A DNA stretch of 64,000 nt. It comes from a bacterium. Its GTDB lineage: Bacteria; UBA8248; JACPRG01; G963555815. Within the stretch, counting starts at the first letter, position 1. Each line of letters begins with the position of its first letter. The notes beneath the pieces were generated by a model. It ran no database searches. It was not told where the DNA came from and was given only the letters and a program-made list of their open reading frames with translations. The stretch spans positions 128,001 through 192,000 of the forward strand of contig CBDHDG010000002.1 of the NCBI GenBank assembly GCA_965261595.1, given 5' to 3'. Positions 26,333 to 62,200 of this stretch are shown here, piece after piece. The position numbers were made by a program, and so were the translations under genes.

Positions 26333-27129
26333 TCACAGCAAATCGTCGAAATCCGATTCCAGCAGGAGCGCGCGGGAGATCTTGTTGTCCACGCAGAAGT
26401 GCTTGACGAGGAAGACCACCTCCAGGACCCCCTTCTCGCTCAGCCCCAGCCGGCGGACCTCCCGCATGTGGAAGTCGATCCCTAATCCGACTTGGCGGTC
26501 ATGGACGCCGCCAGCGCCAGGATCTCCTTGGTGAGGCGGTCGAGCTTTCGGCCCGTGAACGCGGTCTTCACGTAACTCCAGTGGTCGCCCAGGTAGCCGG
26601 GGTCGTTCGCCATCACGCGGTGGACCCCCGGGACGAAATCCATCTCGTAGAAGCCCTTGATGTCGTCGAAGACCTCTTTGACCTTCCCGGCGGCCTTGGC
26701 CTCATCCACCAGGGAAACAAGGGGTTTGCGGATGCCTGGGTCGTTGAAGGGCAGGGGGACCCACACGCCGTCCGCCACAGCGTTGATCCCATGGACGGTC
26801 CCGACCGTGTAGGCCAGCTCGTACCAGATGTCGTCGTCCTTCAGGCCTTGCTGCTTCCCGGCAGCGGTGTGCGAGGCCGTTCAGTAGGGGCAGACGTTGA
26901 TGGCGCTGACCGCCGAGGCGATGAGCTCCTTCGTCGTCCGGGGGAGCGCGCCCGGGGAGAGCGCCCGCCGGGTGCACCGCCCCTGGCCGGCCCGGAACTC
27001 CGGGTAGTGGCTCAGGACACGAACCATCTTCGGGACGAAATCGATGTTGAAGAACTCCTTGACGTGCTGGAACTGCTTTTGCGTCTCTTCGGGAAATTCG
27101 GATTCGTCCCGAATGCGGACGGTCTCCAT
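26333..27129 (-). CDS. Tandem carboxymuconolactone decarboxylase/AhpD-like protein, putative selenoprotein (CPYU), with an apparent 1-nt deletion near 26482
   Basis: KELIASAVSAINVCPY-TGA(26881-26883)-TASH continues in frame into a second CMD repeat KEILALAASMTAKSD[Y]GIDFH...LL-stop. Span is 797 nt, one short of 266 codons. Confidence 0.8.
26844..26878 (-). promoter_or_regulatory. Candidate bacterial SECIS hairpin
   Basis: GGCCT..GCTGC-CGGGAA-GCAGC..AGGCC directly 3' of the UGA. Confidence 0.65.
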
Positions 27130-27265
27130 GGGTCACCTCCTCAGAGATGGAAAATTCCGGAGAACTCCCGGGCTGTATGGCCTTCAGCCATTCGCCGTGT
27201 GGAACGTTCCCTGGTGCGGCGCCTTGAAAATCGCATTACTTATCGAGACTCGAACTGTCCTTTCG

Positions 27266-27376
27266 GGCCGGGCAAGGGGTCAACCGACCCGAGGGGTCAA
27301 CCGACCCAAACGCCCGGCCTGCCGGTGGACGGAAAGCCGGGATCTTCAGACAGGTAGGGCGGGCATCTTGCCCGCC
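27266..27376. repeat. REP-like doublet
   Basis: GGCCGGGCA-(AGGGGTCAACCGACCC)x2-...GCCCGGCC, then GTAG-GGCGGGCATCTTGCCCGCC. Confidence 0.75.
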
Positions 27377-27448
27377 TTCTCCGCAATTCGTGAAGGGTCA
27401 GCTTATTTTCGAGACGTACCATGAGCTTCCGGGAACCGCGCCTTGATT

Positions 27449-28168
27449 TCAGCGGGCCGCGGACAAAGACCGGAGCGCTTCAGGCGCCTCCCGGAAATGC
27501 CGGATCAGGACGTCCGGCGCCGCTCTCGCAAGCCGCGCTTCGCTGTTGTAGCTCATGGGCCAATCGACGGCGATCGTCATGACGCCCGTCTTTTGGGCCT
27601 CTCGAATGTCTTTTTCCATGTGCCCCGCGTACGCGCAAGTCTCGATGGGAATTTCATTCTCGGACAGGATATGCAGAATCCCGTGGGCCTTTGTTCTGCC
27701 GATGTGGTCGGGATTGAAGACCGTCGTCCACTCCCGCGCCGCGAGAGAGACGCGGGATTCTGGGAAAAATTTCCCCAACCCCAGACGCTCGATCTCCGCG
27801 CGGACGAATTCTCCTCCTTTCGATGTAATGATGGAGCAGGTCACGCCGTCCCGACGCAACTCTTCGAGCACCTCGGCGGCGCCCTCACACAGCTTCCCCT
27901 TCGGCTCGCCCTTCGTGGCGCGGACCAGCTCCGCCCGCAGCACCTCCCGGTCGTAACCCGGCATGAATTCCGGAATGATGAACTCGTCCAGCGTCCCCTC
28001 GGTGACGTCGCGAAAGTGATCGAACGTGATTTCGCTCAGGCCGTGCAGGACCAGGACCTTATTCGTGATCGAAAACGCGACGCGCACGTCGTCGTAAAGG
28101 ATCCCGGGAAAGCTCAGGATGAGGTGATCGATGGGCCGGGCGGACGCGGCGTCCCGTGATGCCTCCAT
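27449..28168 (-). CDS. HAD-fold protein with degenerate catalytic motifs
   Basis: AAGGAG RBS. HAD/PGP-like layout (IITSK, D..AQKTGV, APDVLI), but motif I reads SFPG and motif IV reads GH. Confidence 0.7.
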   Translation of the reverse strand: MEASRDAASARPIDHLILSFPGILYDDVRVAFSITNKVLVLHGLSEITFDHFRDVTEGTLDEFIIPEFMPGYDREVLRAELVRATKGEPKGKLCEGAAEVLEELRRDGVTCSIITSKGGEFVRAEIERLGLGKFFPESRVSLAAREWTTVFNPDHIGRTKAHGILHILSENEIPIETCAYAGHMEKDIREAQKTGVMTIAVDWPMSYNSEARLARAAPDVLIRHFREAPEALRSLSAAR

Positions 28169-28254
28169 GCTGTCCGCTCCTTTTCGGGACCGATGGGCCC
28201 GGTCTTCTCCGGCCCCGGACCATCGCCGGGAACGGGGCCGCGGTGTGAGGGGGT

Positions 28255-28869
28255 TCATGAAGTCCCGGGCGTCTCTCCGATGCGGACGCCTTCGAGCCCG
28301 AGCATCCGGGCTTTGGTCGAGACGCCGCCGGGCGCCGAGAATCCTCTCAGGTCCCCCCGGGACCCGATGACCCGGTGTCACGGAACGGCGATGGGAAGCC
28401 GGTTTTTGGCCATGACGACGCCCACCGCGCGGGCGGCCCCGGGCGAGCCGGCCGCGGTCGCCACCTGGCCGTACGTCCGGACCCGTCCCCAACCGATTTT
28501 CCGGGTCACGCGCGTCACCCGCCGGGAGAAGGGAGAAAGGTCCGAGAGGTCGAGGTCGAAGCTCAGCGTGACCGGTTTGCCTTCAAAGTAATCTTCGACC
28601 GATTGGATGACCCGTCGAAGAAAGGGGTTGGGGGGATTGCTCAACCGGGCATCCAAATCCCTCAACTCGGCCTCGACTTGTCCCCGGCTGTCGAGATGGA
28701 GGATCAGGCGGCGGAGACCTCGTTGGGTGGCGGCGGCGCCTGCCCAACCGAAGGCCGTCCGAAAAGCGGCGCCTTCGAGTCCGGAAGGAGGTTGGGGCCC
28801 CGGACCGGCTTTCGCATTTCGAGGGGGCTGATTGCGGCCGTTCGAAGCGGTCATCGATTTCTCCTTCAC
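28255..28869 (-). CDS. ogt: O6-methylguanine-DNA-protein methyltransferase, putative selenoprotein (PUHRV)
   Basis: GRVRTYGQVA, ARAVG..MAKN.LPIAVP-TGA(28378-28380)-HRVIGS.GDLRGFSAPGG...K..ML.LEG. Confidence 0.9.
28347..28367 (-). promoter_or_regulatory. Candidate SECIS hairpin
   Basis: TCGGGTCCC-GGG-GGGACCTGA 9-bp stem after a 10-nt spacer 3' of the UGA. Confidence 0.65.
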
Positions 28870-28885
28870 CCATAGGTCTTGTGCT

Positions 28886-28916
28886 TGCTACGCTGAAAGC
28901 GTACAGTATATAGTAT
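28886..28916 (+). promoter_or_regulatory. Sigma70-type promoter overlapped by an NrdR-box-like site
   Basis: TTGCTA-N17-TATAGT; GTACAGTATATAGTAT (28901-28916) matches 12/16 of acaCwAtATaTwGtgt. Confidence 0.55.
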
Positions 28917-29149
28917 CTTCGCGAAAGATAGTCTCCTGTCTGGCATGTCGAGTGGAGTTGGTGGTTCGCCCAGAAAGCGGCGGCGGATTGCGCGGATTAC
29001 GCCGGCGTTTCATTTCAAATCGGCCGTCCGTTTGTTTGAGGCGGGTTCGGTCCGTTGGTTTATGCGGACGCATGCAAGGCGCTGAGGTTTCACCGAGATC
29101 GCCGGAGAATCAGTCGGCCCGCGGCGCTTGAAAGGGAGAATGGATCTCC

Positions 29150-30409
29150 GTGAGACGAACACTTGAGGACATCGATCCGGAAATCGCCCGCGTTATCGAC
29201 CTTGAGCAGACCCGGCAGGAAGAAGGTCTCGAGCTCATCGCGTCGGAGAACTTCACAAGCGCGGCGGTGATGGAGGTCCAGGGGTCGGTCCTGACGAACA
29301 AGTACGCCGAAGGGCTGCCCGGCCGCCGGTATTACGGGGGCTGTGAGCATGTAGACACGGCCGAGAACCTTGCGCGCGAACGGGTCAAGGCCCTGTTCGG
29401 CGCCGCCCATGCCAACGTTCAACCTCATTCGGGGACGCAGGCGGTGACGGCCGGATACCTGGCTTTTATCCGTCCGGGCGACACCATCCTCGGCATGAAC
29501 CTGGCCCACGGAGGCCACCTGACCCACGGAAGTCCCGTCAGTATTTCCGGGGGCCTGTTCAACGTTGTCGCCTACGGCGTGGACCCGAAGACCGAGCGGA
29601 TCGACTTCGACGACGTTCGCTCCAAGGCGCGGGAACACCGTCCGGCCATGATCGTCGTCGGGGCGAGCGCCTACCCGCGCGTGATCGAGTTCGATCGGTT
29701 CCGGGAGATCGCCGATGAGGTGGGCGCGAAGGTCATGGTCGACATGGCCCATATCGCCGGCCTGATTGCGGCCGGAGCTCACCCCAATCCTGTTCCCCAT
29801 GCCGACGTTGTCGCCGCCACGACGCACAAGACGTTGCGCGGACCGCGCGGCGGGTTTGTGCTGACCAACGATGAGGAGACCGCGAAGGCGCTGAACAAGA
29901 AAGTCTTTCCGTACCTTCAGGGAGGCCCTTTGATGCACGTCATCGCGGCCAAGGCGGTGGCTTTCAAAGAGGCGGCGACGGAGGCGTTCCGGGACTATCA
30001 GCGGCAGATCGTGCGCAATGCCGCGGCGCTGGCCGACGCCCTGCTTTCGAGCGGAACCCCGCTCATCTCGGGGGGAACGGACAACCATCTCATGCTCGTC
30101 GATTTGCGCAAGAGTCCGGTGGACGGGAAGACCGCCCAGCTCGCCCTGGAAGCGGCCGGGATCACGGCGAACCGGAACGCCGTGCCGTTTGACGAGCGCT
30201 CCCCCTTCGTGGCCAGCGGGGTCCGGATCGGGACGCCCGCCGTGACGACCCGGGGAATGCGGGAAGAGGAGATGCGCCGGATCGGCCGGTGGATCTCGGA
30301 GATTTTGGGCGACGTGGAGAACACCGCCTTGCAGGCCAAGATCCGCGAGGACGTCCGGGAGCTCTGCGGAAGGTTTCCCCTCTATGCGGGAAGCCCGGCC
30401 GCGGCCTGA
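29150..30409 (+). CDS. glyA: Serine hydroxymethyltransferase
   Basis: LIASENF, NKYAEG, GGHLTHG and [12 protein letters not shown]. Confidence 0.98.
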
Positions 30410-30432
30410 GCCCTCCACGGGAGGTTTTTTTC

Positions 30433-30957
30433 ATGAAATGTCCATCGTGCGGCTCGACGGGAACGAAGGTCATCGACTCGCGCTTGACCAAGGACGGCAA
30501 CGCCATCCGCCGCCGCCGCGAATGTGAGAGCTGCGAGCGGCGCTTCACGACGTATGAGCGCCTGGAAGAGGTCTTTCCGCTTCTGGTGAAAAAGGACGGC
30601 CGGCGCGAGCCGTTCGAACGCGGCAAAGTCCTGGCCGGAATCCAGAAAGCGCTGGAGAAGCGCCCGGTGAGCGCGGATGTGCAGGAGGCGATGGTCGACC
30701 GGGTCGGGCGGTACATCCTCGAATCGGGGGAGAAAGAGATCCCCAGCGGGGTGATCGGCGAGCGGGTCATGGCCGCGCTCCGGGAAGTGGACCATGTGGC
30801 GTACGTGCGCTTCGCGTCCGTTTACAGGTCATTCAAGGATCTGGACGACTTCATGGTTCAACTGAAGGAGTTGTTGGCGGAGCATGCACACGGAAACGAC
30901 GCGGTGTCGGCGGACCTCGCGGCCGCGCGTTTCGAGGGGTCCTCTCCCGGCCCTTGA
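30433..30957 (+). CDS. nrdR: Transcriptional repressor NrdR
   Basis: [15 protein letters not shown] zinc ribbon, ATP cone and [10 protein letters not shown]. Confidence 0.97.
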
Positions 30958-31114
30958 GATCGCCCCCTCTCCCTCCCCCCCCCCGGGTCAACCGAAAATT
31001 TACGATTTCCAGACATAACCGGGACATCAGGAATCCGCGCGTGTGGAAGAATGCCTTGCCGTCGGCCGGATTCCGTTCCATGTTGAGCGTGGCGCATGTC
31101 CTGGAGGAATTTCC

Positions 31115-31660
31115 ATGAAGACCTCAAGTCGAAGACTCTGGTGGGTGGTCGGGATCATCGGCCTTGCCCTGGCCTTGTGGTCCCTGTTCCCGACCTGGGT
31201 GCGGGTTTCCGCCGAATCTCTGATTGGCCGGCCGGCGCCGCCCATCCGGAGCAAGACGTGGATCAACTCCGCCCCCATCGAATGGTCCTCGCTTCGGGGA
31301 AAGGTCGTCCTGGTCGAGATGTGGACCTTCGGGTGAATCAACTGCCGGAATGAGATTCCGCAGTTGGCGGTCTGGCATAAGCAATACGCGAAACGCGGTT
31401 TGGTGATCATCGGCAATCACGCCCCCGAGTTCAGCCACGAGAAGAAGCTCGAAAACGTCCGGCGCGCGGTCAAGAGGCTGGGCGTGGAGTATCCGGTCTG
31501 CCTCGATAACGACTTCGCGAACTGGAAGGCCTCCCGGAACCGGTACTGGCCGACCCGGTACCTTGTCGATAAGAAGGGGGTCATCCGCTCCTTCCGGATC
31601 GGCGAGGGGGATCACGCGGCGACGGAGGCGATGATCGAGAGGCTGTTGGCGGAGAGTTGA
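31115..31660 (+). CDS. Membrane-anchored TlpA/DipZ-like redoxin, putative selenoprotein (UxxC)
   Basis: GGAGG RBS, N-terminal TM segment, LRGKVVLVEMWTFG-TGA(31334-31336)-INC...GNHAPEFSHEK...NRYWPT.YLVDK.G.IR...GEG. Confidence 0.9.
31339..31366 (+). promoter_or_regulatory. Candidate SECIS hairpin
   Basis: CAACTG-C-CGGAAT-GAG-ATTCCG-CAGTTG. Confidence 0.65.
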
Positions 31661-31753
31661 GTCCGGACCAGGGTCGAGGCCGGAGGGGGTTTCTCCCCCC
31701 TCCCCCTCCCCCTCCCCCCGAAGTCGAATCCGCCGGCTGGATGATCCGGCCGG

Positions 31754-31800
31754 AAATCCCGATGATTCGGAAGCCCCCGGATCATCGGGATTTTTTCTTT
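31754..31800 (+). terminator. Intrinsic terminator-like hairpin
   Basis: AAATCCCGATGATTCGG...CCGGATCATCGGGATTT followed by a T-tract, between convergent genes. Confidence 0.65.
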
Positions 31801-32156
31801 TTGCGTTTGGGGTTTCGCGGCCGTGCGGATTTGTATCCCTCCGCCCACTGGATTTCCACGGCTTTTTCCGCCCATTCGGCCAGGCGGTCCGGGTCTTCCA
31901 GGACATCGGCGGGCACCTCGTAATAGCTCTTGAGCGTCAACCTTTCGTTGGCCCGGAACGGCCCCATTCCTTGGGCGACGTATTCTTCCCGCGTGACCGC
32001 GTCGGTTTTGAAGTAGAGCCGGCCGTCGGATGAGATCAGGCCGAAGAAGGTCTCTCCCCGGTAGAGTCCGAACCCGCCGAACATGGGACGGGCGTGGACA
32101 TCGTTCATCCCATCCAACTGGTCCAGGACAAACCGACAGAAGTTTTCGTCCCTCAT
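31782..32156 (-). CDS. TfoX/Sxy N-terminal domain protein
   Basis: RPMFGGFGLY, LYFKTD and YYEVPADVLED. Confidence 0.88.
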   Translation of the reverse strand: MRDENFCRFVLDQLDGMNDVHARPMFGGFGLYRGETFFGLISSDGRLYFKTDAVTREEYVAQGMGPFRANERLTLKSYYEVPADVLEDPDRLAEWAEKAVEIQWAEGYKSARPRNPKRKKKKSR

Positions 32157-32182
32157 GGGCGGCGCTCGCTTCGCCGGAGGGA

Positions 32183-32614
32183 TTACACCGGGTTCTTGAG
32201 GCTGTCGAAGCCGCCCTGGAAAACGCCGTTGGCGACCACCCCGCAGATCTCTTCTTCGTTCTCCGGGGGGACGTCGAACTCCGCGGACCACTCGGCGAAC
32301 GTGCGGCCGCCGTCCGTGACGGGCAAAAGGCGCAGCGTGGAGACGTAGTTCTTGATCGGGAAAGGAGACTCGAGAATCGAGTATGTGCAGGATCGCTCCT
32401 CGTCCGAAAATGCCCGGAGCTCCTCGCGGATGACGGCGCCGTCCTCCAAGGTGAGCTTTCGTTTGCAGCCGGCCCGGTCCGCCGGCAGGTCGCCTTCGAT
32501 GATGCTTTCACGGAACGCGGGGTTCCACCCGGCAAGGTCGCCGAAGTCCCGAATGGTCGCCCACACCTGATCGACCGGCCTGTCGATGACTGCGCTGACG
32601 TAGACTTTTGCCAT
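32183..32614 (-). CDS. SRPBCC (polyketide cyclase/MxaD-like) protein
   Basis: VW..IRDFG.L..WNP, IREEL and TFAEWSAEFD. Confidence 0.85.
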   Translation of the reverse strand: MAKVYVSAVIDRPVDQVWATIRDFGDLAGWNPAFRESIIEGDLPADRAGCKRKLTLEDGAVIREELRAFSDEERSCTYSILESPFPIKNYVSTLRLLPVTDGGRTFAEWSAEFDVPPENEEEICGVVANGVFQGGFDSLKNPV

Positions 32615-32905
32615 TTCCGAATTCTCCTCTGAACCGAGCACTCCCCTGAGACCCTCCGCGGGCGACTGACGAAGGCGTTTTTCCGCGGTCTTCAATCCCG
32701 GACGGGGGTCAACCCCGGCATTGCGGCGAATGGGCGCATCCTAGCACGGCGGGCGCGAGAAAGCGGGTCAAAGCCAAATCCGGAAAGCCGACGAAGGTTC
32801 TTTGTTCTACATGGGGAACCACCCAAACCCAGAGATGTAGGCGCGGGGATGAGACGTGGGGGATTCCGTGTTGCGCCGGAAACCAACCCCACCTCCGGTC
32901 TCCCG

Positions 32906-33355
32906 TTACAGAACCCGATCGAGCCGGACCAACGTGCCGTTCCAGCCGTCGGCGTGGGCTTGGCGCGCTTCCTCCGTGGGAAGGAGCTCGTGCGTGACCG
33001 AGATTTCGGTCTGATCGCCTTCCCCCCGAAACTCGACCGTGACCAACGTCTCGCCGATGTCCATACCGCCCTCGGCCCACGACCAGGTGAACACCAGTTT
33101 CTCTCCGGGCGCGACTTCTTTGTACACGCCCGCGGTAGTGTTGCGGTTTCCGTCCGGCGACACCATCACAATCCGGTAGGCTCCGCCGACGCGCACGTCG
33201 GCCTCGGCGGTCGGGATTGTGAAGTCGTCGCTGGGCCCGAACCATCGTTTGAGCGCTTCCGGCTCGGCCCACGCCCGGTAAACCCGGTCCCGGGAGGCCA
33301 CGTATGTCCGTTGAAAGGTCAGGGCCTGAACAGATTCTACGTTGCCTGATGCCAT
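32906..33355 (-). CDS. SRPBCC/AHSA1 domain protein
   Basis: VYRAWAEPEALKRWFGP, DVRVGGAYR, LVFTWSW and H..GW. Confidence 0.88.
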   Translation of the reverse strand: MASGNVESVQALTFQRTYVASRDRVYRAWAEPEALKRWFGPSDDFTIPTAEADVRVGGAYRIVMVSPDGNRNTTAGVYKEVAPGEKLVFTWSWAEGGMDIGETLVTVEFRGEGDQTEISVTHELLPTEEARQAHADGWNGTLVRLDRVL

Positions 33356-33513
33356 GGGTTCTCCTCCTTTTTGTCCGTGAGGGTTCCCGTCCCATCGAGC
33401 CATTTCCTCATCTCTTCCGGTTCCGTCCACGCCCGGAAAATCCTTTCCCTCGGGGCCGGGAACGTCCGTTGGATGGAGACCGCGGTTTCGCGGGCGGTTT
33501 GTCCTCGGGGCAT
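33337..33513 (-). pseudogene. Truncated AHSA1/SRPBCC paralog fragment
   Basis: IQRTFPAPRERIFRAWTEPEEMRKW, after which similarity to the adjacent gene ends. Confidence 0.55.
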
Positions 33514-33881
33514 TGCGTTTCCCCCCCCCTCCCCCCCCCTCCCTCCTCCTCGTCTCGGGTGGTTTCCAGGTATTCGGCCAGGGCGTCCAGGCGCTTCTCC
33601 CAGAATCGGCTGTAACGTCGAATCCAATCGTCCGCGTCTTGCATGGGCTTCGCGTTCAACCGGCAGCGGTGAATCCGGCCGTCCCGCTCCCGCGATAGGA
33701 GGCCCGCCGTCTCCAGCACCCGTAAATGCTTCGAGATGGCGGGAAGCGATATCTTGAACGGCCGGGCCAGCGCCGTCACCGTGGACTCCCCCCGCGCGAG
33801 CCGCGTCAGGATCGCCCGCCGCGTCGGGTCGGCCAGCGCCGAAAATGTGATGTTCAGACGGTCTTGATTATATTTAACCAT
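33408..33881 (-). CDS. ArsR/SmtB-family regulator (C-terminus possibly run-on)
   Basis: FSALADPTRRAIL and SLPAISKHLRVLE.AGL. Confidence 0.9.
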   Translation of the reverse strand: MVKYNQDRLNITFSALADPTRRAILTRLARGESTVTALARPFKISLPAISKHLRVLETAGLLSRERDGRIHRCRLNAKPMQDADDWIRRYSRFWEKRLDALAEYLETTRDEEEGGGGRGGETQCPEDKPPAKPRSPSNGRSRPRGKGFSGRGRNRKR

Positions 33882-33889
33882 ATGGTTAA
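33874..33889. promoter_or_regulatory. Perfect 16-bp palindrome over the ArsR start codon (putative operator)
   Basis: TTAACCATATGGTTAA; TTGACG-N17-AATACT lies just upstream on the minus strand. Confidence 0.7.
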
Positions 33890-35181: not shown

Positions 35182-35208
35182 TCGGCCTCACCCCGGGCAG
35201 TCCCGTTC

Positions 35209-36240: not shown

Positions 36241-36266
36241 GTCTCAGGCCCGTTCCGGCGGAGCGC

Positions 36267-43642: not shown

Positions 43643-44197
43643 ATGGCGCGGATCCGAGAAGCGGACCCATCGGCCGCTCCGCCGGAAATCCAAAAGATCT
43701 TCGAGGAGCAAACAGAGACTTACGGGGAGGTGTTGAACTCCTATCTGATTTCCAGCCACAGGCCCTCCATCCTCCTCGCCAACCAGGCCTTCGGGGGGGC
43801 GATCGAAGAATCGGGGCTGCTCCCGGTGGGGCTGCGGACGCTTCTGAACGTCCGGGTGGCGCAGATCAACGGATGCCCCTTCTGAGCGGACTCCAATTCA
43901 TTCCGTGGAATGAACAGCGGAGAAGACGCGGAGAAGTTTCTCTCGGTGGACCGGTGGCGCGAAAGCGGCCTCTATAGCCGCAGAGAGCGGCTCGCGCTGG
44001 AGGCGGCCGAGGGGATGACGGTCGCGGAGGTCGATGTGAGCGACGACCTCTTCGGGGAGCTGCGGGCCGAGTTCACCGACGAGGAGCTCGTCGAGCTGGC
44101 CGCCGTGATTGCCCTGGAGAACTACCGGAGCAAGTTCAATCACTTCTTCCGGGTCGAGGCCAACGGGCTCTGCAAATGGGAGCCCCCGGAAGCCTGA
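43643..44197 (+). CDS. AhpD/CMD-like protein, putative selenoprotein (CPFU)
   Basis: LLNVRVAQINGCPF-TGA(43883-43885)-ADSN continues in frame to RERLALEAAE.MT...EELVEL...ENYRSKFN. Confidence 0.88.
43897..43914 (+). promoter_or_regulatory. Candidate SECIS hairpin
   Basis: TTCATTC-CGTG-GAATGAA after an 11-nt spacer 3' of the UGA. Confidence 0.7.
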
Positions 44198-51522: not shown

Positions 51523-51554
51523 TCGCTTGATCCGCGTCTTCGCAAGGCCATCGA

Positions 51555-53063: not shown

Positions 53064-54737
53064 TCAGTCGTCGATGGCCAGGATTTTTAGAAACCCCGTC
53101 GGGCGATCGGGCAAGACCAGGTTCCTGCTCACGCCCCAAAGCTCGTCCGTGTGGAGGAGCCAGAGCCGGACCGCGTCCTTCGCCAGGATTTCCTGAAGCT
53201 CGTCGTAGATCCGCTTTCGCTTCTTGCGGTCGAATGTCCGCGCCCCTTGCTTGATCAGGGCGTTCACCTTGGGGTTTCGATACCCGGTCTTGGACCGCCG
53301 GGGGTCATACCCCTCCAAGGCCACGTCAGGCGAGATCATGAGGCTGTTCGGGTGAAGGTGGGAGAAGGCGTCGTATTTCCTCCTGAGATAAAACTTGAAG
53401 TATGCGGTGACGAACGTCAGGCGCTTGAGTTTCACGTCCATCCCCACCGCTTTGAGCATCGGGATGGCGGCCTGGGCGATGATGGCCGACGCCCGGCTGG
53501 ATGCCACTATCCAGGTGAAGCCGAGTCTTTTTCCGTCCTTGACGCGGATGCCGTCCGGGCCCGCTTTCCAGCCGGCCTCCTCCAGGAGCGCCTTGGCCTT
53601 CCCTGGGTTCCCGTCGAAGATGGACACGTTCTTATTGTAGGCCCAAGAGAGGGGGTGGAAGGGGCTGTTGGCGATGGTCCCCCAGCCTTTGAATATATGC
53701 TTCAGGATGGCCTTTCGGTCGATGGCGTAGCTGATGGCCCGCCGCACCCTCACGTCCTGGAAGATGGGGTTTTTCAGGTTCAGGTCCATGTACCAGTTGG
53801 ATTGGCCGGACATGCGGACGCCCCGGCAGCATGCGTCCCGGCTCACGTTTTTGAATTCATCCACGGGCACCGCGGCATAGAGTCCGTTGACGTTCAACGC
53901 CCCCGTCCGCAAGGCGGCCAACCGGCTGAACGAATCGGGTGTGGTCCGCCAGATGACGGTCTCGATCTTGGGCTTCTTTCCGAAGTAGTCCGGATTCCGC
54001 CGAAGGACCGTCCGGTCGCGGGACTTCCAGGATACGAAAGCGTACGGACCGGTCCCGATGGGCTTGTGCGTGAAGGCGTGCTTTCTCATGGCCTTCACGG
54101 GAACGTTGCCGAGAATGTGTTTGGGGACAATGGGATGGATCGTCGAGATCATGAGGAAGGGCGAATAAGGCTCTTTGAGCCGGATCCTGATCCGGTGCGG
54201 TCCCAGGACCTCGATCCCCTTTATCGAATCGGCTTTCCCCGCCCGATATTCGGCGGCGCCCAGAATGCTTTCGTAGTAGCGGGAATGGCCGAAGCCCGCG
54301 GGGTTGTCCTTCTGCATCAGAACTTCGAAGGTGAATTTGACGTCCTCGGCCGTGAAGGGTTTCCCGTCGTGCCATTTCACCCCCTTGTGGAGGTTGAACG
54401 TGTAGGTGAGCCGGTCCTTGCCGACCGTCCAGGATTCGGCCAGGTCCCCCTCCGGCGCCATCATTCCGGCGGGCTTGGTCAGGCCGTTGAAGACCATGTT
54501 CTGCCAGTACGTCACGCTGGAGAGGCGGAAGATGGCCGGGTTGGCGATCCGGAACAGGTCGCTCGCCGAGGCGATAACGACCGTCCCCTTGGTCTGGGCG
54601 GCGGAGACGCCAACGCCGGAGACGCCAACGCCGTAGACGCTCAGGATGGACAAAAGGATCAAACCGAATCGAATGAAGGGCCAAAGACCCCGGTAACCAC
54701 GCTTCATTTCTCTTTTCCTCCCCTCTGATGAGCTCAT
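53064..54737 (-). CDS. ABC transporter substrate-binding protein, family 5
   Basis: DLAESW, VKWHDG.PFTAEDV.FT, PIGTGPY and VRRAISYAIDR. Confidence 0.93.
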   Translation of the reverse strand: MSSSEGRKREMKRGYRGLWPFIRFGLILLSILSVYGVGVSGVGVSAAQTKGTVVIASASDLFRIANPAIFRLSSVTYWQNMVFNGLTKPAGMMAPEGDLAESWTVGKDRLTYTFNLHKGVKWHDGKPFTAEDVKFTFEVLMQKDNPAGFGHSRYYESILGAAEYRAGKADSIKGIEVLGPHRIRIRLKEPYSPFLMISTIHPIVPKHILGNVPVKAMRKHAFTHKPIGTGPYAFVSWKSRDRTVLRRNPDYFGKKPKIETVIWRTTPDSFSRLAALRTGALNVNGLYAAVPVDEFKNVSRDACCRGVRMSGQSNWYMDLNLKNPIFQDVRVRRAISYAIDRKAILKHIFKGWGTIANSPFHPLSWAYNKNVSIFDGNPGKAKALLEEAGWKAGPDGIRVKDGKRLGFTWIVASSRASAIIAQAAIPMLKAVGMDVKLKRLTFVTAYFKFYLRRKYDAFSHLHPNSLMISPDVALEGYDPRRSKTGYRNPKVNALIKQGARTFDRKKRKRIYDELQEILAKDAVRLWLLHTDELWGVSRNLVLPDRPTGFLKILAIDD

Positions 54738-54761
54738 TCATCCTTGCCACTACATACCAGT

Positions 54762-57552
54762 CTAAACGAAATTCTCCAGGAATACCTCTCCCTCGCCCAC
54801 CGGCCGTACCCTCTCGAAAAGCGCCCGGTCGGCGGGTCTTTTCAGGGACGGCTTGGTGGCGTCGATTCCCATGACCCCGGGGCTGTAAGCGTCGGTCACG
54901 CCCGCGCGGTCTTCGCGGCCCGCCTCGGGGGTTGAAGGGTCGAGCTTGTACCCCCGAGTTCCTTCCACGGTGATGATATCCCTGGCCGGATTGACCCGGA
55001 AGCTCATGGCCCATAACACGTCCTTGGGGTCATGGATGTCCACATCGTCGTCCACCACCATGACGACCTTGATTTGGCGATGCAAACCCATGGCCGCCAG
55101 CAGCACGGCCCTGGAATGCCCTTCGAACTCCGGGACCATCTGAACAATGGCCGTCAGCCCCGCCCAGTCCGGGATGTGTACATCGAGGATGCGGGTCCCG
55201 CCGTGAACCTCCTGAAGGTTCCGGTAGGTCCGGACCTCATTGAGGAAGGTGGAAAGGACCTGAAGGTCCGTGAAACGCGATGCGTTGAGGTGGCGGTAAA
55301 TGGCGTCCTTCCGCATCGTGATGGTCTTGACCTCGAAGACCGGGGATTGCCCGATCGGTCCCATGTACCCGGTGTATTCGCCGAAGGGCCCCTCCGTTTC
55401 CCGGACCTTCGGGGGGACGATCCCCTCGATGACGATCTCGGCCCCCGCGGGCACCCGCAGATCGACGGTCTCGCACCGGACGAAATCCACAGTCTCCTCC
55501 AGCAGGGAAGAGGCCAGCTCAAACTCCTCGAATCCGGGGTGCGCGGCGGTGAACGTGCTTGCGATCTCGTAAGCGGGATGGTGGCCGATGACCACGGCCA
55601 TCGGCATGGGCTCGCCCGCCTTCTCGTATTGGGTGTAGTGCGCCCATCCCGTCCGCCTGCCGACGGCGAATCGGGCCCGGTTTCTGCCGGTGACCTGGAT
55701 GCGGTAGAAGGCCTGGTTCTGAATTCCGGTGGAGGGGTCCTTGGTCACGCACATGCCGGCGCCGATGTATCGGCCGCCGTCGCCCTGGCTGTGAATGCCC
55801 ACCTCCCCCGCTCTAGGGTTTTGTTGGACACTCGATTGATCCATGATTCATGGAGAAAGGGGTGTCGCGATGAACGAACAAAAGCAAGAGGGGGCTTTGG
55901 CGGAGGGCGCCCGCAGGGCGAACGGAGCCAAGGCCCCAGGGCATCGCAGTGAGCGGGGTCGGTTCTCCTGCCAGCGCAAGCGGGAGGCGGTCCTGCGTCT
56001 TTTGCGGGGCGAGAGCCTGGAGACGCTCTGCCGCGAGTTGGGCACGACAGCGGCTCGGCTTTCCGCCTGGTGCGAGGCGTTCCTTCGCGGGGGCGAGGCG
56101 GCGCTCAAAGCCCGCCCGGCGGATGAGCGGGACGAGGAGAACGCCCGGCTCAAGGCCAAGGTGGGCGAACTCACGATGGAGGGCGAGGTCCTGCGGGAGA
56201 AGATCGACCGCCTGGAGGCCGGCCGCCCTTTAGCCGGCAGGAGGTGGAGGCGATGAGTCAGGCCCGCTTCACCTCCACGGGCAGAGCCTACGGCCTGAAG
56301 CGGGTGTGCGCCCTTTGGGGCTTGGCGCGCTCCACGGTCTACGCGCAACGGCGGCGAGAGGCGGTCCCCGTTCATGAACGCCCCACGCCCAATAAGCGCG
56401 GCCCTGTGGGCCCGTGCACCGATGCGGAACTCCTCGGCCACATCCGGCAGGTCCTGGAGGACTCTCCCTTCCATGGCGAGGGCTACCGCAATGTGTGGGC
56501 GAGGCTGCGCTTCGCGGGCATCCGCACCAGCAAGGAGCGGGTGCGTCGCCTGATGCGGGAGGCGGGGCTTCAGGCCCCCCACCGGGTGGGCAAACCCCGA
56601 GGTCCCAAGGCCCACAACGGGACCATCCGCACCGAGCGGCCCGACCGAATGTGGGGCACGCACATGACGACGACGGTGACCACCGAGGAGGGGGTGGCCT
56701 CGGTGTTCGTGGCGGTGGATCACTGCTCGGTGGACTGCGTGGGGATCCATGCGGCCAAGAGCGGCAACCGCTTCGAGGCCCTGGAGCCGATCCGGCAGGG
56801 GGTCGCCGAGCGCTTCGCCGGCTTGGAGGCGGACGTCGCCGAGGGGCTTAAAGTTCGTCACGACCACGGCCCCGCCTATCTGTCCGATGACTTTCAGCGG
56901 GAGATCGCCTACCTGGGCATGACCAGTTCGCCCAGCTTCGTGCGGGCGCCCGAGGGAAATGGCTACTGTGAGTGGTTTATCCGCATCTTGAAGGAGAATC
57001 TCCTGTGGGTGCGCTCTTTCGCCACCGTAGAGGAACTGCGGTGGGCGCTGCTTGAGTTCAAGAACCTGTACAACCATCATTGGATTCTCGAGGGCTACGG
57101 CTACCGAACGCCGGCCCAGGCAAGGCAGGAAAAACTCGCTCAAGTTGCGGAGGCCGCATGAGGTCGAATACCCTCACCCGAGTGTCCAATAACCCAGGGG
57201 CGGTCCACACCGGCAGAGCCTGGAGATCGATGTCTTCGCCCCGTATGCGGACCTCCTTCACCGGCCCGTCTTCGACGATGCGGCTTTCCCCGCGCCCCCG
57301 GGCGATCCGGGTCCCCGCGTCTTGGAGCAGCCTGTCGGACGTCGTGCGCAAGGCGGCGGCCTGGAGCTTCCGCGCGCCGAGGAGACGGTCGCAGACCCGC
57401 CAATCGGGATGGCCCTTGATATTCTCGAAGAGGATGGGTCCCCCGCTCTGGGAGCAGAGGGCGCCGAGCTCAGTCAGGGGATCGACCTCCTTATGGATCC
57501 GCAACACCTCGATGTCGATCTCATCGAGAAACGTCCTCAAATCGCTGCCCAT
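54762..57552 (-). pseudogene. Second UbiD-family decarboxylase interrupted by IS A copy 3
   Basis: Removing the IS and one CACC restores ...DLQALPV-GIHSQGDGGRYI in frame; EGPFGE and GIDATKP motifs. Confidence 0.92.
55804..57207 (+). mobile_element. IS element A, copy 3 (OrfA 55843-56256, OrfB 56253-57161)
   Basis: 1404 bp, TSD CACC; WGTD changed to WGTH. Confidence 0.94.
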
Positions 57553-57614
57553 CTTGCGCCCTCCCTCTGTCCGGGGGTCGAACGAATCGCGTCGCGCCTC
57601 GATTTGCTTTTTTC

Positions 57615-57641
57615 ATCTGTGAAATCTGTGAAATCTGTGGA
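57615..57641. repeat. 9-bp tandem repeat (ATCTGTGAA)x3
   Basis: ATCTGTGAA ATCTGTGAA ATCTGTGGA. Confidence 0.8.
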
Positions 57642-57804
57642 TCAATGGTATTGCATTTCGTGGGTCCTTGAAATCCGGCTCTGTACAATTTGTGGATCAA
57701 TGACAGGATTAGAGGGGTCACCGGGTCCAAATTGCATTCCGATACCGCTCGTCTTATCCTGCTACAGGTTGGATTGTGAATCCATCGATAGGAGGAACGA
57801 AAAG

Positions 57805-58371
57805 GTGTCGCGACTGACCGTCCGAAGGGTCATCTCGACGGACCCCGAGACGCTCTGGAAGCGGGTGGAGGGCGGCTCGTTCGCCGGCCGTTGGATTGCG
57901 CCGGGGGGGGGGGAGGAGGAGGCCGGAGAGGGCGCGGGTTCGAGCCCGGGGGCGGAAGAGGCCGCATGGCGCGAATCGTTGCGCGTCGGCCCGTTTTCCT
58001 TCAAGGTCGCGGCGACCTGGGCCGAGCGGGTTCCTTGGGAACGGAGCTTCTGCCTCCTCGATGGGCCTTTGGGCATCCGGATTGCGGAGGAAATGAGGCT
58101 GGAGCGGCTCGCGGCCGGGACGGCGCTCTCCCTGACGGTGGATTTCGCTCTGGGGAGCGGAGGGATCGGGGAGTGGCTGGACCGCGTCTGGTTGTCGGGT
58201 TGGATTTCAAGACGCCTGGAACGCGGGATCGCGAAGCTCGAAGGGGAGTACAAACGACCCGGGGACGAGAAAGACCCGGACGTGGGCGTTCATCTGGAGC
58301 GCCCCGAGGACCGGCCCTGGGGACTGGACCAAGCGGGTCCGGCGCGGCCGAGGCCGCCCCGGCCCGAATGA
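57805..58371 (+). CDS. SRPBCC-like protein
   Basis: AGGAGG RBS with GTG start; weak SRPBCC pattern. Confidence 0.55.
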   Translation: MSRLTVRRVISTDPETLWKRVEGGSFAGRWIAPGGGEEEAGEGAGSSPGAEEAAWRESLRVGPFSFKVAATWAERVPWERSFCLLDGPLGIRIAEEMRLERLAAGTALSLTVDFALGSGGIGEWLDRVWLSGWISRRLERGIAKLEGEYKRPGDEKDPDVGVHLERPEDRPWGLDQAGPARPRPPRPE

Positions 58372-58404
58372 TTCAACGATGAGATGGCGCAAGGGGTTGA
58401 ATGA

Positions 58405-59130
58405 GTGGAAGGCGGCATCGAGCACGATCGCATCCTCGTGATTGCGGCCCATCCGGACGACATCGACTTCACCGTCGCCGGGTCGGTCGCCTTGTGTGCG
58501 AGGGCCGGAAAAACCGTCGGTTATTGCGTCGCGACAAGCGGGGACAAGGGTTTTGACGAAGACCTTCCGGTGGAAGAGCGGATGAGGATCCGGGAGGAGG
58601 AGCAGCGGGCCGCGGCCGCGGTGGTCGGCGTCGAGGAAGTGCGCTTTCTCCGCGAGCCCGACGGCGAGTTGCGGAACACGCCCGGGCTGCGGCGGGCGAT
58701 CGTGGCCGTCATCCGGAAATTTAAACCCGACGCGGTGGTTGTCACCGGAGACCCCGGCTCGACGGAATTCGAAAGCTTCTACGGGTCCCATCCCGATCAT
58801 CGGGCCCTCTCCGAGGCGGCATACGATTCGGTCTATCCGGCGGTCGGGAACCGATTCTACTTCCCCGACTTGTTGGAGTTGGGCCTTGATCCACACAAAA
58901 TCAAAGAAGTCCTTTTCTCCGGCTCTTCCAAGCCCGATTATTTTGTGGACATCGGCGAAACCTTCGACCTCAAAATAAAGGCGCTTCGCTGCCACAAGAG
59001 CCAGGTTTCGGGGATGGACGACCTGGAAGATCGGATGCGGGATTGGGGCCGCAGGAGAGGGGAGCCCGAGGGCATGGCCATCGCCGAGTCCTTCCGGCGG
59101 ATGGAACATCCCGACGGCGGCGGGAAGTGA
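58405..59130 (+). CDS. PIG-L/LmbE family deacetylase
   Basis: AAHPDD, TSGDKG, R.EEQ..AA, HPDH and H.SQ. Confidence 0.92.
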   Translation: MEGGIEHDRILVIAAHPDDIDFTVAGSVALCARAGKTVGYCVATSGDKGFDEDLPVEERMRIREEEQRAAAAVVGVEEVRFLREPDGELRNTPGLRRAIVAVIRKFKPDAVVVTGDPGSTEFESFYGSHPDHRALSEAAYDSVYPAVGNRFYFPDLLELGLDPHKIKEVLFSGSSKPDYFVDIGETFDLKIKALRCHKSQVSGMDDLEDRMRDWGRRRGEPEGMAIAESFRRMEHPDGGGK

Positions 59131-59173
59131 TCGCGCTCCCCCCCTCCCCCTTGACCGTTCGGAGAAAGGCCCG

Positions 59174-59860
59174 ATGACCGAGGACGCCCTGGGCGCGACG
59201 CTCTTTCCGGACTATCCGAAGATTCCCGGCTGGTACGCCCGGGAGGTCGAAGGCCTCACCGACGCCCAACTCGATTTCACCGATGAACGGGTGGAGTGGA
59301 TGAAGTGGGGCGTTCGCCGGCAGTTGAGCCACGCGGCGTTCGTCCATTTCCACTGGCTGGTCAACCAGTGGGCCTCGCGGGTGTTCGGCCCGGACGATGA
59401 GATGCCGGACTTCGACGCCGAGGCCTGCGCGCGGCGGGACCGCCGGTTCGACGAAGAAACCCACCGGACCCCGGACCGCCTTCTGTTTCGGATGGAACAG
59501 GGGGTGAACCTGGTGAAGCTCATCCTGGGCCGGGAAACCATCCGGGAGATGCGTGGCAAGGAATTGGACCGGGTGGCGCCGCCGGGGGCGCGCTATCCCT
59601 CTGGCGATTCGGTCCTTGATTTCTGGCGGGTCGCCGAGCGGATCAACCCCGATATCCGGGTGGACCCGAAAAACGAGAACCGATACCTGATCAATCTTGT
59701 CGGAATGATGAGGCAGATGTATTTCGAGTGCCTGATTCACCTCTACACCATTCAGCGGTTGAAACGGGCGCAGGGACTGGAAGCCGTGGCCGAGATCCCG
59801 AGGGAGGGGTACATGCCTCTTTCGGCCTTTACCGGGGCGGCGGAAGACGCGGCGGGGTGA
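59174..59860 (+). CDS. DinB-like superfamily protein
   Basis: W.VRRQLSH near the N-terminus and ECLIHL..IQRLK near the C-terminus; tentative. Confidence 0.5.
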   Translation: MTEDALGATLFPDYPKIPGWYAREVEGLTDAQLDFTDERVEWMKWGVRRQLSHAAFVHFHWLVNQWASRVFGPDDEMPDFDAEACARRDRRFDEETHRTPDRLLFRMEQGVNLVKLILGRETIREMRGKELDRVAPPGARYPSGDSVLDFWRVAERINPDIRVDPKNENRYLINLVGMMRQMYFECLIHLYTIQRLKRAQGLEAVAEIPREGYMPLSAFTGAAEDAAG

Positions 59861-59882
59861 ATCAGCGGCGGGAGGTTGAGCG

Positions 59883-60435
59883 ATGAAAGTGAGACGACAT
59901 ATCGGGCGCTGGGCCGGCGTGCTGGGAATCCTTGCGGGGGTCTGGTCCTGCGCGCCTCCGCCTCCTCCTCCTCCTCCTCCTCCTCATTCGAAGCCGCCCT
60001 CCGAGATTGCCAATCTGCTCTCGCGCCTGCCGGACGCCCGGTATCGCGCCTCGTTGGTTTACGCGCGCGCGCGGCGCGTCGCATCCCCTGGCCGTCGTCC
60101 TCGATCCCCGGGGCGGAGAGAAGCTGTCCGTCCTTGAGTTGTCGGCGATGGAGTTCTTCACCGAAGACCTGGGCGAGCTCGGCCGGAAGGACCTGATCGC
60201 CCGGCTCGATGGAATCGAGGGCCGGCGGTTCGGAGGCCGGACGCTTCGATACCTGGAGCGTTTTTCCAAGTGGCGGCTGAGGACCCTCATGCGGTTCGGG
60301 GCGCCCATCGGATACCTCATCACCGTGGACCCCCGCCTGCGGTTCGAGCTCCGCGGCGGGACCTCGGGACGGGTCTTCTCGGTGTTTCTGCTTCCCGCCT
60401 CGAACTTCGTGGACAAGATCAGGGGGGAGGAGTAG
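59883..60435 (+). CDS. Putative lipoprotein with poly-Pro tract, frameshifted at a (GC)n run near 60063-60072
   Basis: Signal peptide ending VWSC, then (CCT)n; the downstream frame continues GASHPLAVVLDP... Confidence 0.5.
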
Positions 60436-60505
60436 CCCCCAATCCGGATTTCCGGCGGGGGGCTCGGGCCGTGGGCGACCCTGATTGCGGCGGCGGGAGG
60501 TGACA

Positions 60506-61507
60506 ATGGAAATCGGCATCGGCGGGTTTCCCCAGGAGGCGTTCAGCTCGACGGGGGCGCTGCTCGAAGTTTGCGAGAGAGTCGAGGGTTACGGTTTCGA
60601 CCGGCTTTGGATGGCCGATTCCCAGGGGATCTGGCCCGACCCTTACACCCTGTTGGGCCGGCTCGCCGGAACGACCTCCGGCATTGGACTGGGCGTCGGC
60701 GTCAGCAACCCGAGGACGCGCCACCCGGCGGTTCTCGCGCGCTCGGCCGTGACGGTCGCCGACCTGGCCGGGGAGCGGTTTGTCCTCGGGATTGGCGCGG
60801 GGAACACCGCCTTGCTCCACCTGGGCCTTCCGCCGGGGGGCGTCGAGCTTTGCGGAGAAGTCGTCCGGTGCGCGCGCGCCTTGATTCGGGGCGAAGCCGG
60901 GACGTTCCACGGCGCGGCGGTCCCGGCGTTCAACGATTACCAGCCCCGCGACATCCCGGTCTGGATGGCGGGAAACGGCCCGAAGATGCTCGCCCTGGCC
61001 GGAGAGATCGCCGACGGGGCCATCGTCAGCTCGGGGATCTCGCCGGGGATCTTCGCCTGGGTCCGTGCTCAAATCGAGGTGGGCCTGAAGCGGAGCGGGC
61101 GAAGCTGGAGCGCCTTCACGCTCCTGGCCTTCGTCGGATGCGCGGTCTCGGACGACCGCCCCGGGACCCGGCGCGACATCCGGTCTTGGGTCGCCCGCCG
61201 CCTGTCCATGCCGCTGCCCGATGAGGTCTTCGGCATCCCCAAGGCCGACCGGCTGCGCGCGCTCGATAGCTACCAGTACACGGAGCATTACCGGGTGGGC
61301 GCCTCGCATGAAGGGGTGGTGGATTCCATCCCCGACGAGTGGATCGACCGGTTCGGCATCGCCGGAACGCCGGAAGAATGCGCCGAGCGGCTCTCTTCCC
61401 TCGCGGCCCTCGGCGCGGACGCCGTCTTTATCCTGCCCATCACGGGCGATTCGCACGCGTATCTGAAAACCTTCGCCGAGAAGATCCTGCCCAATGTGAA
61501 GCGGTGA
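60506..61507 (+). CDS. LLM-class flavin/F420-dependent oxidoreductase
   Basis: GFDRLWMADS, VSNPRTRHPAV, LGIGAG, GPKML.LAGEIADG and IAGTPEE. Confidence 0.92.
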   Translation: MEIGIGGFPQEAFSSTGALLEVCERVEGYGFDRLWMADSQGIWPDPYTLLGRLAGTTSGIGLGVGVSNPRTRHPAVLARSAVTVADLAGERFVLGIGAGNTALLHLGLPPGGVELCGEVVRCARALIRGEAGTFHGAAVPAFNDYQPRDIPVWMAGNGPKMLALAGEIADGAIVSSGISPGIFAWVRAQIEVGLKRSGRSWSAFTLLAFVGCAVSDDRPGTRRDIRSWVARRLSMPLPDEVFGIPKADRLRALDSYQYTEHYRVGASHEGVVDSIPDEWIDRFGIAGTPEECAERLSSLAALGADAVFILPITGDSHAYLKTFAEKILPNVKR

Positions 61508-61591
61508 GCCGAGATGAGGAGGGGGGGGCCGTCAGCCGATTCGCGGGTTTTTGAGGGGCCCATCCCGCCGGGAGAAAAAGGGGGAAAGCCG

Positions 61592-62200
61592 ATGTTCGAT
61601 GTGCTGAAGGGAATCCTGGTGCGGTACCGGGAAGCCAAGCGGGTGCACGCGGAGAAGGTCGCGCAGCTCATCGCGGAGCATTCCCGTGAAATCTTCTCCG
61701 ATCCGGACTCCCCCATTGCGGGCAACCCGGAAGGGGACGTTACGATCACCCATTTCCTGGATTATCGCTGACCCCACTGCAAGACCCTCGGTCCGAGGAT
61801 CGCGGAATTCGTGAAGGAGGATACGGGCGTTCGGTTCGTCTTGAAGGAGCTGCCCCTGCTGGGCGATTGGTCCCTGCTCGCCTGCCGGGCGGCGCTGGCC
61901 GCAAAGGCCCAGGGCGCGTATGACCGGATCAACCTGGAGCTCTTCCGCGTCAAGGGCGGGAACCGGGAGCGGAAAGTCATGGACCTGGCGGCGGGGCTCG
62001 GCCTGGATATGGAGCGTTTTCAAGCAGACCTGGAGAGCGCGGCGTCCGACGCCGTCATCGAGCGCAACAAGGTCCTCGCGAAGACCCTCGGGGCCTGGAA
62101 AACCCCTTCCATGGTGGTCGGCGATCGAATCAGGATCGGCGGCGCGAAAGTGAAACACCTCCGGGAAATCGTCGCGGGCTTGCGGGCCGGGCCGGTATGA
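61592..62200 (+). CDS. DsbA/Com1-like thiol-disulfide oxidoreductase, putative selenoprotein (UPHC)
   Basis: GNPEGDVTITHFLDYR-TGA(61769-61771)-PHCK...KELPLLG..S...KTPS.VVGD in one frame. Confidence 0.9.
61777..61805 (+). promoter_or_regulatory. Candidate SECIS hairpin
   Basis: CCTCG-GTC-CGAGG apical stem (GGUC at the loop) with outer CTGC/GCGG pairing. Confidence 0.7.

Follow-up and report, generated by a model that had tools for sequence, protein, structure and literature searches.

Five genes with an in-frame TGA

The window analysed here is a stretch of 64,000 nucleotides from a bacterium of the UBA8248 lineage (assembly GCA_965261595.1, contig CBDHDG010000002.1, positions 128,001 to 192,000 of the forward strand), in which five genes each carry a single in-frame TGA that we consider a candidate selenocysteine (Sec, U) codon. 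Two of the genes are CMD/AhpD-like (called AhpD1 and AhpD2 here), one encodes an Ogt, one a DipZ-C/TlpA-like protein, and one a DsbA-like protein. The five TGAs lie exactly where an earlier first-pass annotation, a reading of the letters alone, had put them (Table 1). When the frames are translated with TGA as U, they yield proteins of 215, 199, 181, 184, and 202 residues in the order of Table 1, and in all five a Pfam domain above its cut-off spans the U. The codon model gives a positive coding score both upstream and downstream of the TGA. The motifs at U are VCPYU (AhpD1), VPUHRV (Ogt), GUINC (TlpA-like), GCPFU (AhpD2), and RUPHC (DsbA-like), so that U is the second residue of the CxxC motif (CxxU) in both CMD/AhpD-like proteins and the first, attacking residue (UxxC) in the DipZ-C/TlpA-like and DsbA-like folds. 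The first-pass annotation had also placed each TGA on a catalytic Cys, and this placement is confirmed: U stands at the reactive Cys in each protein, inside the domain that spans it, and alignments to PDB structures locate it for the Ogt and TlpA-like proteins.

Table 1. Predicted selenoprotein genes, predicted Sec codons, and candidate selenocysteine insertion sequence (SECIS) elements in the window. Distances are counted past the U of the UGA.
Feature	Position	Strand	Evidence
AhpD1, predicted two-domain CMD/AhpD-like selenoprotein gene	26333-27129	-	CMD (Pfam) 57.2 bits (cut-off 23), residues 50-101, covering U83
Predicted Sec codon U83 of AhpD1, VCPYU (CxxU)	26881-26883	-	Conserved TGA
Candidate SECIS of AhpD1, loop CGGGAA	26844-26878	-	Stem-loop 5-39 nt past U, -14.0 kcal/mol
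Ogt, predicted Sec-containing O6-alkylguanine-DNA alkyltransferase (Ogt/MGMT family), 199 aa	28258-28854	-	DNA_binding_1 (PF01035) 96.3 bits (cut-off 27), residues 108-190, covering U159
Predicted Sec codon U159 of Ogt, alkyl-acceptor Cys of PCHRV	28378-28380	-	PDB alignment, conserved TGA
Candidate SECIS of Ogt, 9 bp, loop GGG	28347-28367	-	Stem-loop 13-33 nt past U
TlpA-like, predicted membrane-anchored thioredoxin-fold selenoprotein (DipZ-C/TlpA/ResA-like), 181 aa	31115-31657	+	AhpC-TSA 44.3 bits (cut-off 26), residues 37-159, covering U74
Predicted Sec codon U74 of TlpA-like, first of UxxC (GUINC)	31334-31336	+	DipZ alignment, conserved TGA
Candidate SECIS of TlpA-like gene, 12 bp, loop GAG	31339-31366	+	Stem-loop 5-32 nt past U
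AhpD2, predicted CMD/AhpD-like (YciW-related) selenoprotein gene, 184 aa	43643-44194	+	CMD 42.6 bits (cut-off 23), residues 46-123, covering U81
Predicted Sec codon U81 of AhpD2, GCPFU (CxxU)	43883-43885	+	C-x-x-U in 8/8 closest loci
Candidate SECIS of AhpD2, 7-bp stem, invariant CGUG loop	43897-43914	+	Stem-loop 14-31 nt past U
DsbA-like, predicted thioredoxin-fold selenoprotein gene, 202 aa	61592-62197	+	Thioredoxin_4 (PF13462) 63.2 bits (cut-off 23.2), residues 38-194, covering U60; DSBA (PF01323) 57.1 bits (cut-off 25.6)
Predicted Sec codon U60 of DsbA-like, first of UxxC (RUPHC)	61769-61771	+	Sec/Cys split in matches
Candidate SECIS of DsbA-like gene, loop GUC	61777-61805	+	Stem-loop 8-36 nt past U

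Conservation was followed in 40 related genomes (1 from the same genus, 5 from the family, and 34 from the class), and counts out of 41 below include the window's own genome. The TGAs persist in orthologues with as little as ~40-50% identity. In the same-genus genome, all five genes carry the TGA and lie collinear on a single contig. The Ogt and TlpA-like genes are also adjacent in two further genomes of the family. Contigs from three DNA runs of three studies were aligned over 26300-31700, and they show no difference at the three TGAs located there.

The best Ogt match contains an in-frame TGA in 35 of the 41 genomes and lacks it in 6, and 31 of the 35 TGA-bearing matches have exactly one TGA and no other stop. 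As assessed at 12 Ogt loci in relatives (39-87% identity), P-U-HRV is present in every one and conserved sequence continues past the U. A search of related contigs returned a single Ogt locus, 63% identical, in a Nitrospinota bacterium metagenome-assembled genome (MAG). In an alignment to OGT chains of the PDB, U159 pairs with the Cys of PCHRV in chain 4wxc_A (2.9e-20), and the sequence around it, …KNRLPIAVPUHRV…, retains the Asn eight residues before the acceptor. TIGR00589 recognizes the protein (79.7 bits, cut-off 46.4), and its N-terminal ribonuclease-like domain, PF02870, scores 20.7 bits against a cut-off of 21. This Sec-Ogt is the sole PF01035 match in the genome; many relatives carry an additional, longer Cys-type Ogt paralogue. 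Between the Ogt and TlpA-like genes are glyA- and nrdR-like frames, identified by eye.

The TlpA-like gene was found in 35 of the 41 genomes (E up to 1e-18), with one TGA in 35/35 orthologous matches; two further matches at 35% identity contain no TGA. Where the regions were fetched, U..C occupies the homologous place in 19 of 20. U74 pairs with the first Cys of CINC in the DipZ C-terminal domain structure 2hyx (5.2e-41 over 139 residues), and besides AhpC-TSA the Redoxin model matches (30.9 bits, cut-off 26.6). The TlpA equivalog NF047696 reaches 26.4 of 230. The earlier label TlpA is thus approximate, the closest solved relative being the DipZ C-terminal domain.

The DsbA-like gene shows the classic Sec/Cys pattern, with TGA in 6 of 36 matches and no stop in the other 30, which are Cys forms and include a paralogue in the same genome (C5:301593, given as contig:position here and below). 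Translation of the gene may start at either of two ATG codons (61514 or 61592), and inspection of the protein by eye revealed no obvious signal peptide. AhpD2 has the motif CPFU and is matched by TIGR00778 just above threshold (28.5 bits, cut-off 27.8). Among the 150 CMD-family matches listed for the class, most have one TGA and the others have none (Cys forms).

AhpD1 is composed of two CMD domains with the redox motif in the first only, and TIGR00778 matches it at 50.1 bits (cut-off 27.8) with the core motif CPYU..SH. All 35 listed AhpD1 matches, from 25 of the 41 genomes, have a single TGA. The gene had been reported to extend to 26333. As assembled, however, it occupies 26485-27129 (215 aa) and is terminated by a TAG at 26482-26484, while the remainder of the second CMD domain lies in another frame that runs to 26333, so this end is reached after a +1 frame change. 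Contigs from all three DNA runs contain one additional G behind 26482, which restores the frame (…TAKSDYGIDFHM…), and the restored frame is identical there to the intact same-genus orthologue (…TAKSDYGIDFHM…). Because the G is present in the three DNA runs and in the same-genus orthologue, we conclude that the frame break is private to this assembly, whether through error or as a variant of the strain. An RNA-library contig (26791-27093) spans the AhpD1 TGA without difference, which is only a hint of transcription, DNA carry-over also being possible. On the minus strand, Ogt, an open reading frame at ~27240-28150, and AhpD1 follow one another over 26333-28854, and Ogt and AhpD1 are co-stranded, separated by ~2.0-2.3 kb, in the same-genus genome as well as in one further member of the family. 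They may form an operon.

Decoding machinery, hairpins, and competing explanations

The genome comprises 6.17 Mb in 7 contigs (64% GC, 96.7% complete, 5.6% contamination), and the search of it for selA, selB, selD, and tRNA-Sec that the first-pass annotation had proposed as a check found all four. The selA gene (469 bits) adjoins selB (390 bits), and selD (330 bits) itself has one in-frame TGA in the N-terminal …KAGGUGSK… loop. One tRNA-Sec with anticodon tca scores 72 bits; four other matches to the tRNA-Sec model were checked (the next three listed and a weaker one) and are tRNA-Ser, -Leu, or -Ile. TGA is the terminator of 2189 of 3391 long frames rich in G and C at third codon positions (65%), and prfB, encoding release factor 2 (RF2), is present (514 bits). 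Since TGA is the main stop, RF2 is present, and four of the window's five genes themselves end in TGA, we conclude that TGA is not reassigned in this genome.

A stem-loop follows all five TGAs, starting 5-14 nt after the U. We compared each with a strict version of the published bacterial SECIS (bSECIS) rule, which calls for a stem-loop shortly after the UGA with G in the first two loop positions at 16-37 nt from it. The Ogt, TlpA-like, and DsbA-like hairpins satisfy the strict version, and those of AhpD1 and AhpD2 do not. For AhpD2, the 7-pair stem is 98.2% paired in 8 orthologues, compared with 34-68% when the partners are slid; both partners have changed in two of the pairs, and the covariation score was reached in 4 of 500 shuffles. 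For the TlpA-like gene, 14 more distant orthologues have an 8-pair hairpin with loop AGAU one codon further on that is 87.5% paired (slid partners 40-58%), in which one pair changes from C-G to G-C in 6 sequences and whose covariation score was reached by 0/500 shuffles. We regard the covariation in these two genes as supportive, not decisive, for putative SECIS elements. The three AhpD1 orthologues offer too little variation for covariation. At all 12 Ogt loci, a hairpin with a GGG or GGGC loop can be read by eye ~22 nt past the UGA, and its register, also by eye, differs between two groups, being shifted in the more distant one.

Taken together, these data indicate that the five TGAs are, with high probability, Sec codons. 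As predicted selenoproteins, the five products are expected to contain selenium, and we infer its insertion in the following way. SelD, itself apparently a selenoprotein here, would make selenophosphate, with which SelA would convert Ser-tRNA-Sec(UCA) to Sec-tRNA-Sec, and SelB would then bring Sec-tRNA-Sec to those UGAs that have a stem-loop closely 3′ within the coding sequence. The remaining UGAs would act as stops through RF2. Sec would thus stand in for the reactive Cys in each of the five proteins, and its lower pKa and higher nucleophilicity may be what selection keeps.

A number of observations weigh against this interpretation. The genome holds genuine nonsense TGAs, which align with Trp or Cys in paralogues 74-98% identical, and an in-frame TGA alone therefore proves nothing. 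The DNA runs were compared at three of the five TGAs, those at 26881, 28378, and 31334. All five genes score below cut-off against the selenoprotein-specific models of NCBIfam, which has "(seleno)protein" models related to four of them; the score against NF041054, for example, is 19.6 of 300. These four genes would accordingly represent subfamilies separate from the related NCBIfam selenoprotein equivalogs, not members of them, since the scores stay below the cut-offs. Of the hairpin evidence, the strict bSECIS rule selects only 3 of the 5 sites and also accepts 477 of 1500 random sense codons (32%) and 133 of 600 terminator TGAs, and for the same reasons it was dropped as a genome-wide filter. 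RNAalifold produced a poor consensus on the 12 Ogt sequences (-3.99 kcal/mol), which is explained by the differing registers of the hairpin. The structures tested for the TlpA-like gene and AhpD2 were drawn from the same sequences, and the kin compared are not independent. A scan of the window at Rfam gathering thresholds gave no match; bacterial SECIS elements are poorly covered in Rfam, and this null says nothing either way. In a 64% GC genome, the presence of a hairpin is weak evidence on its own.

The most direct alternative is that the five genes are pseudogenes in which TGC or TGT has mutated to TGA. Such cases do exist in this genome (an HsdM-type gene 98% identical to its Cys copy, and TGAs opposite Trp in close paralogues), and AhpD1 has a frame break in this assembly. 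But that break is private to the assembly, the coding scores are positive on either side of the TGAs, and both the TGA and the protein sequence downstream of it are conserved across genus, family, and class, so nonsense mutation is highly improbable here. The first-pass annotation had argued that random nonsense would not hit a catalytic Cys five times; chance is indeed ruled out, on the basis of orthologue conservation and not of the count of five. Nor does it seem that the TGAs are sequencing or assembly errors. The region does contain at least one single-base error or variant (at 26482), and the assembly has a 99.2% identical duplicated segment, but three of the TGAs are unchanged in the contigs of three DNA runs, each from a different study, and the same-genus genome has TGA at all five sites, which leaves this explanation a negligible probability.

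Recoding by some other route has also to be weighed. If UGA encoded an ordinary amino acid through a changed code (tables 4 or 25) or a suppressor tRNA, the frames would be open, as they are by construction when TGA is read as sense, and nothing specific speaks for this explanation. It conflicts with the termination of 65% of long frames and four of the five genes by TGA, with the presence of RF2, with the finding that the sole tRNA seen with a tca anticodon is tRNA-Sec, and with the alignment of the TGAs to Cys and not to Trp or Gly, and we judge it extremely improbable. A subtler version is that the Sec machinery does recode these UGAs but often inserts Cys, or that translation mostly terminates there, with the Sec form a minor product. 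In other systems, Cys is incorporated at Sec codons under selenium limitation through a thiophosphate route, and SelB-dependent recoding is never fully efficient. However, TGA, and not TGC or TGT, has been kept over the long term in 35/35 TlpA-like orthologues, which speaks for selection acting on the Sec form, and this version is very unlikely. The earlier claim of Sec codons as opposed to nonsense mutations is thus upheld by the machinery, the conserved TGAs, the reappearance of the checked TGAs in independent assemblies, and compensatory changes in the hairpins of two families.

Size and make-up of the predicted selenoproteome

To estimate how many such genes the genome contains, all 51,535 in-frame TGAs with open frames on both sides were scored by the codon model, which found a coding signal on both sides in 768, and paralogues were then aligned across the TGA. 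Sixty candidates were picked by hand and scanned against Pfam with TGA as U. A domain spans U in 28 of them: 7 CMD, 7 AhpC-TSA/redoxin (one deiodinase-like), 5 DsbA-like, 1 glutaredoxin, 6 OsmC, GrdA, and DUF3179. In four more (3 GrdB and 1 GrdB-like), the GRDB model stops one residue before U, and one, MetE-like, is backed by a Cys-paralogue pair only. The other 27 were rejected after the Pfam scan. Local profiles add two strong members (DsbA-like and OsmC-like) and three weak ones. Overall, there are at least 38 probable selenoprotein genes, the window's five and selD included, and up to ~44; this count is a lower bound, the search being non-exhaustive and biased towards families with paralogues or with a Cys adjacent to U. 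Most of the predicted selenoproteome consists of thiol-oxidoreductase-like proteins (CMD, thioredoxin fold, and OsmC).

Averaged over the genome, 39 positions correspond to 0.4 per 64 kb, compared with 5 in the window, a count with a Poisson probability of 6e-5 per window. The window is therefore an outlier in Sec-gene density and not a sample of the genome average. The first-pass annotation had taken five genes in 64 kb to imply a very large selenoproteome; it was right in kind, with at least 38 probable genes, and wrong in proportion. Part of the window's density is inherited synteny, since the gene order is kept in the same-genus genome and the Ogt and TlpA-like genes stay adjacent elsewhere in the family.

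Several loci outside the window deserve mention. At C4:332827-334392, a glycine/sarcosine/betaine reductase selenoprotein A gene (CFVU motif) adjoins a GrdB gene; two more GrdB paralogues are at C2:302220-303263 and C5:933333-934337 (…UGTCTRCG), and the GrdB-like candidate is at C5:687630. The redoxin/deiodinase-like gene at C6:195593-195976 (ITUPP) has a second in-frame TGA 40 codons past the first, which could be a second Sec codon, a true stop, or decay. Segment C7:1-906 is 99.2% identical to C1:25301-26207 in the opposite orientation, and on each of them a Prx-like UxxC gene adjoins an AhpD-like CxxU gene. The likely cause is some redundancy of the assembly (contamination 5.6%) or a very recent duplication, and C7:626, a third strong hit of the local profiles, was left out of the count. 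Formate dehydrogenase is the most widespread bacterial selenoprotein. An in-frame TGA was sought in 14 molybdopterin-oxidoreductase, 18 rhodanese, and 5 thioredoxin matches and found in none, and formate dehydrogenase apparently lacks Sec in this genome; Rdx/SelW has no match in it.

The rejected candidates had no family or consisted of two genes in one frame (for example UbiD + L-PSP, DUF2232 + L9, ProB-like + NadD-like, and nested transposases). Multi-copy insertion-sequence frames, such as C4:446087-447343, in which rve and then DDE_Tnp_1_4 are joined across a TGA, were picked up as spurious Sec/Sec pairs; they resemble nested or composite elements and were set aside as repeats. An HsdM-type N6 methylase at C6:28326, with TGA where its 98% identical paralogue has Cys, was rejected as a probable nonsense copy, and several other TGAs, which stand opposite Trp in paralogues of 74-96% identity, appear to mark true nonsense pseudogenes.

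Relation to known selenoproteins and significance of the predicted Sec-Ogt

All four families are catalogued as prokaryotic selenoproteins in the consulted part of a 2026 review (PMC13188914), which includes AhpD-like and CMD-like (CxxU), DsbA-like form 1, and thiol-disulfide isomerase-like and redoxin (UxxC) entries. AhpD1 and AhpD2 share the CMD domain and the Sec in second place of CxxC with the known AhpD-like/CMD-like forms (TIGR01926 / PF02627), but score below the cut-offs of NF041238 (33.5/175) and NF053654, a YciW-related (seleno)protein model (151.2/310), respectively. The DsbA-like protein resembles form 1 (UxxC, PF01323) in its DsbA-like thioredoxin domain, its UxxC motif, and the presence of Cys paralogues in the same and related genomes; it differs in falling under the NF041057 cut-off (42.3/190). 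With the known thiol-disulfide isomerase-like/redoxin selenoproteins (UxxC, cd02966 / PF08534) and the C-terminal domain of Mycobacterium tuberculosis DipZ, the TlpA-like protein shares the thioredoxin fold, the N-terminal membrane anchor, and the W-x-x-x-[C/U]-I-N-C motif; it differs in standing alone, unfused to a CcdA-type membrane module, and in that Sec would replace the first Cys.

The first-pass annotation called the selenoproteome hidden, which is an overstatement, as the four families are catalogued and selenoproteomes of this size are in print. In the parts of the two sources consulted, the largest bacterial selenoproteomes of the review have 57 and 63 genes (PMC13188914), and the top ten of BSepDB have 46-63, three of them being MAGs labelled Nitrospinota/Nitrospinae, GTDB UBA8248, with 48-54 genes (PMC13326102). 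Like the Olavius algarvensis Delta 1 symbiont (57-63 genes), a Methylomirabilota MAG (63), and the Nitrospinota/UBA8248 MAGs (48-54), the present genome has tens of probable selenoprotein genes, mostly thiol-oxidoreductase-like; its 38 to ~44 genes, a lower bound, are under the published top ten as far as these sources give them. What we describe are thus new members of known selenoprotein families in a selenoproteome that is large and, as far as the present data show, short of a record.

Sec-Ogt is the detail of greatest interest: no other Ogt-family gene was found in the genome, and most of the relatives searched retain it. The 2007 study of the Olavius symbiont, in the part consulted, had included an Ogt-type selenoprotein in its count (PMC1976440), and the catalogued Ogt/MGMT-type form, predicted computationally, likewise has UGA at the acceptor Cys of PCHRV; it is the status as sole PF01035 gene, with the TGA kept in most relatives searched, that sets the present case apart. 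The literature searched, supplements excluded, contained no biochemical study of a natural Sec-Ogt, only of the engineered human C145U protein. According to the consulted part of that study, human AGT C145U protects E. coli from N-methyl-N'-nitro-N-nitrosoguanidine, indicating that Sec is workable in this chemistry, and can do without the Asn on which the Cys form depends (PMC4150793).

A speculative and, in our own estimate, unlikely reading is that O6-alkylguanine repair in this lineage is selenium-dependent. Ogt is a single-turnover (suicide) acceptor, and Sec-Ogt would consequently spend one Sec per lesion. This seems costly, and on the same reading the selenoether product may be dealkylated and Sec-Ogt reused. 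Were it true, no earlier member of this family, whose hallmark is suicide chemistry, would be known to turn over.

According to the consulted part of the review (PMC13188914), selenoprotein genes are commonly cut short or overlooked by annotation pipelines. Without UGA recoding, genes such as these would be annotated as truncated or be missed, and the redox and DNA-repair capacity of the lineage would be underestimated. In the relatives searched, an alkyltransferase and a DipZ-like oxidoreductase occur in natural, conserved, predicted Sec forms that can be compared with Cys forms, and such a comparison could show what Sec buys in single-turnover and disulfide-exchange chemistry.

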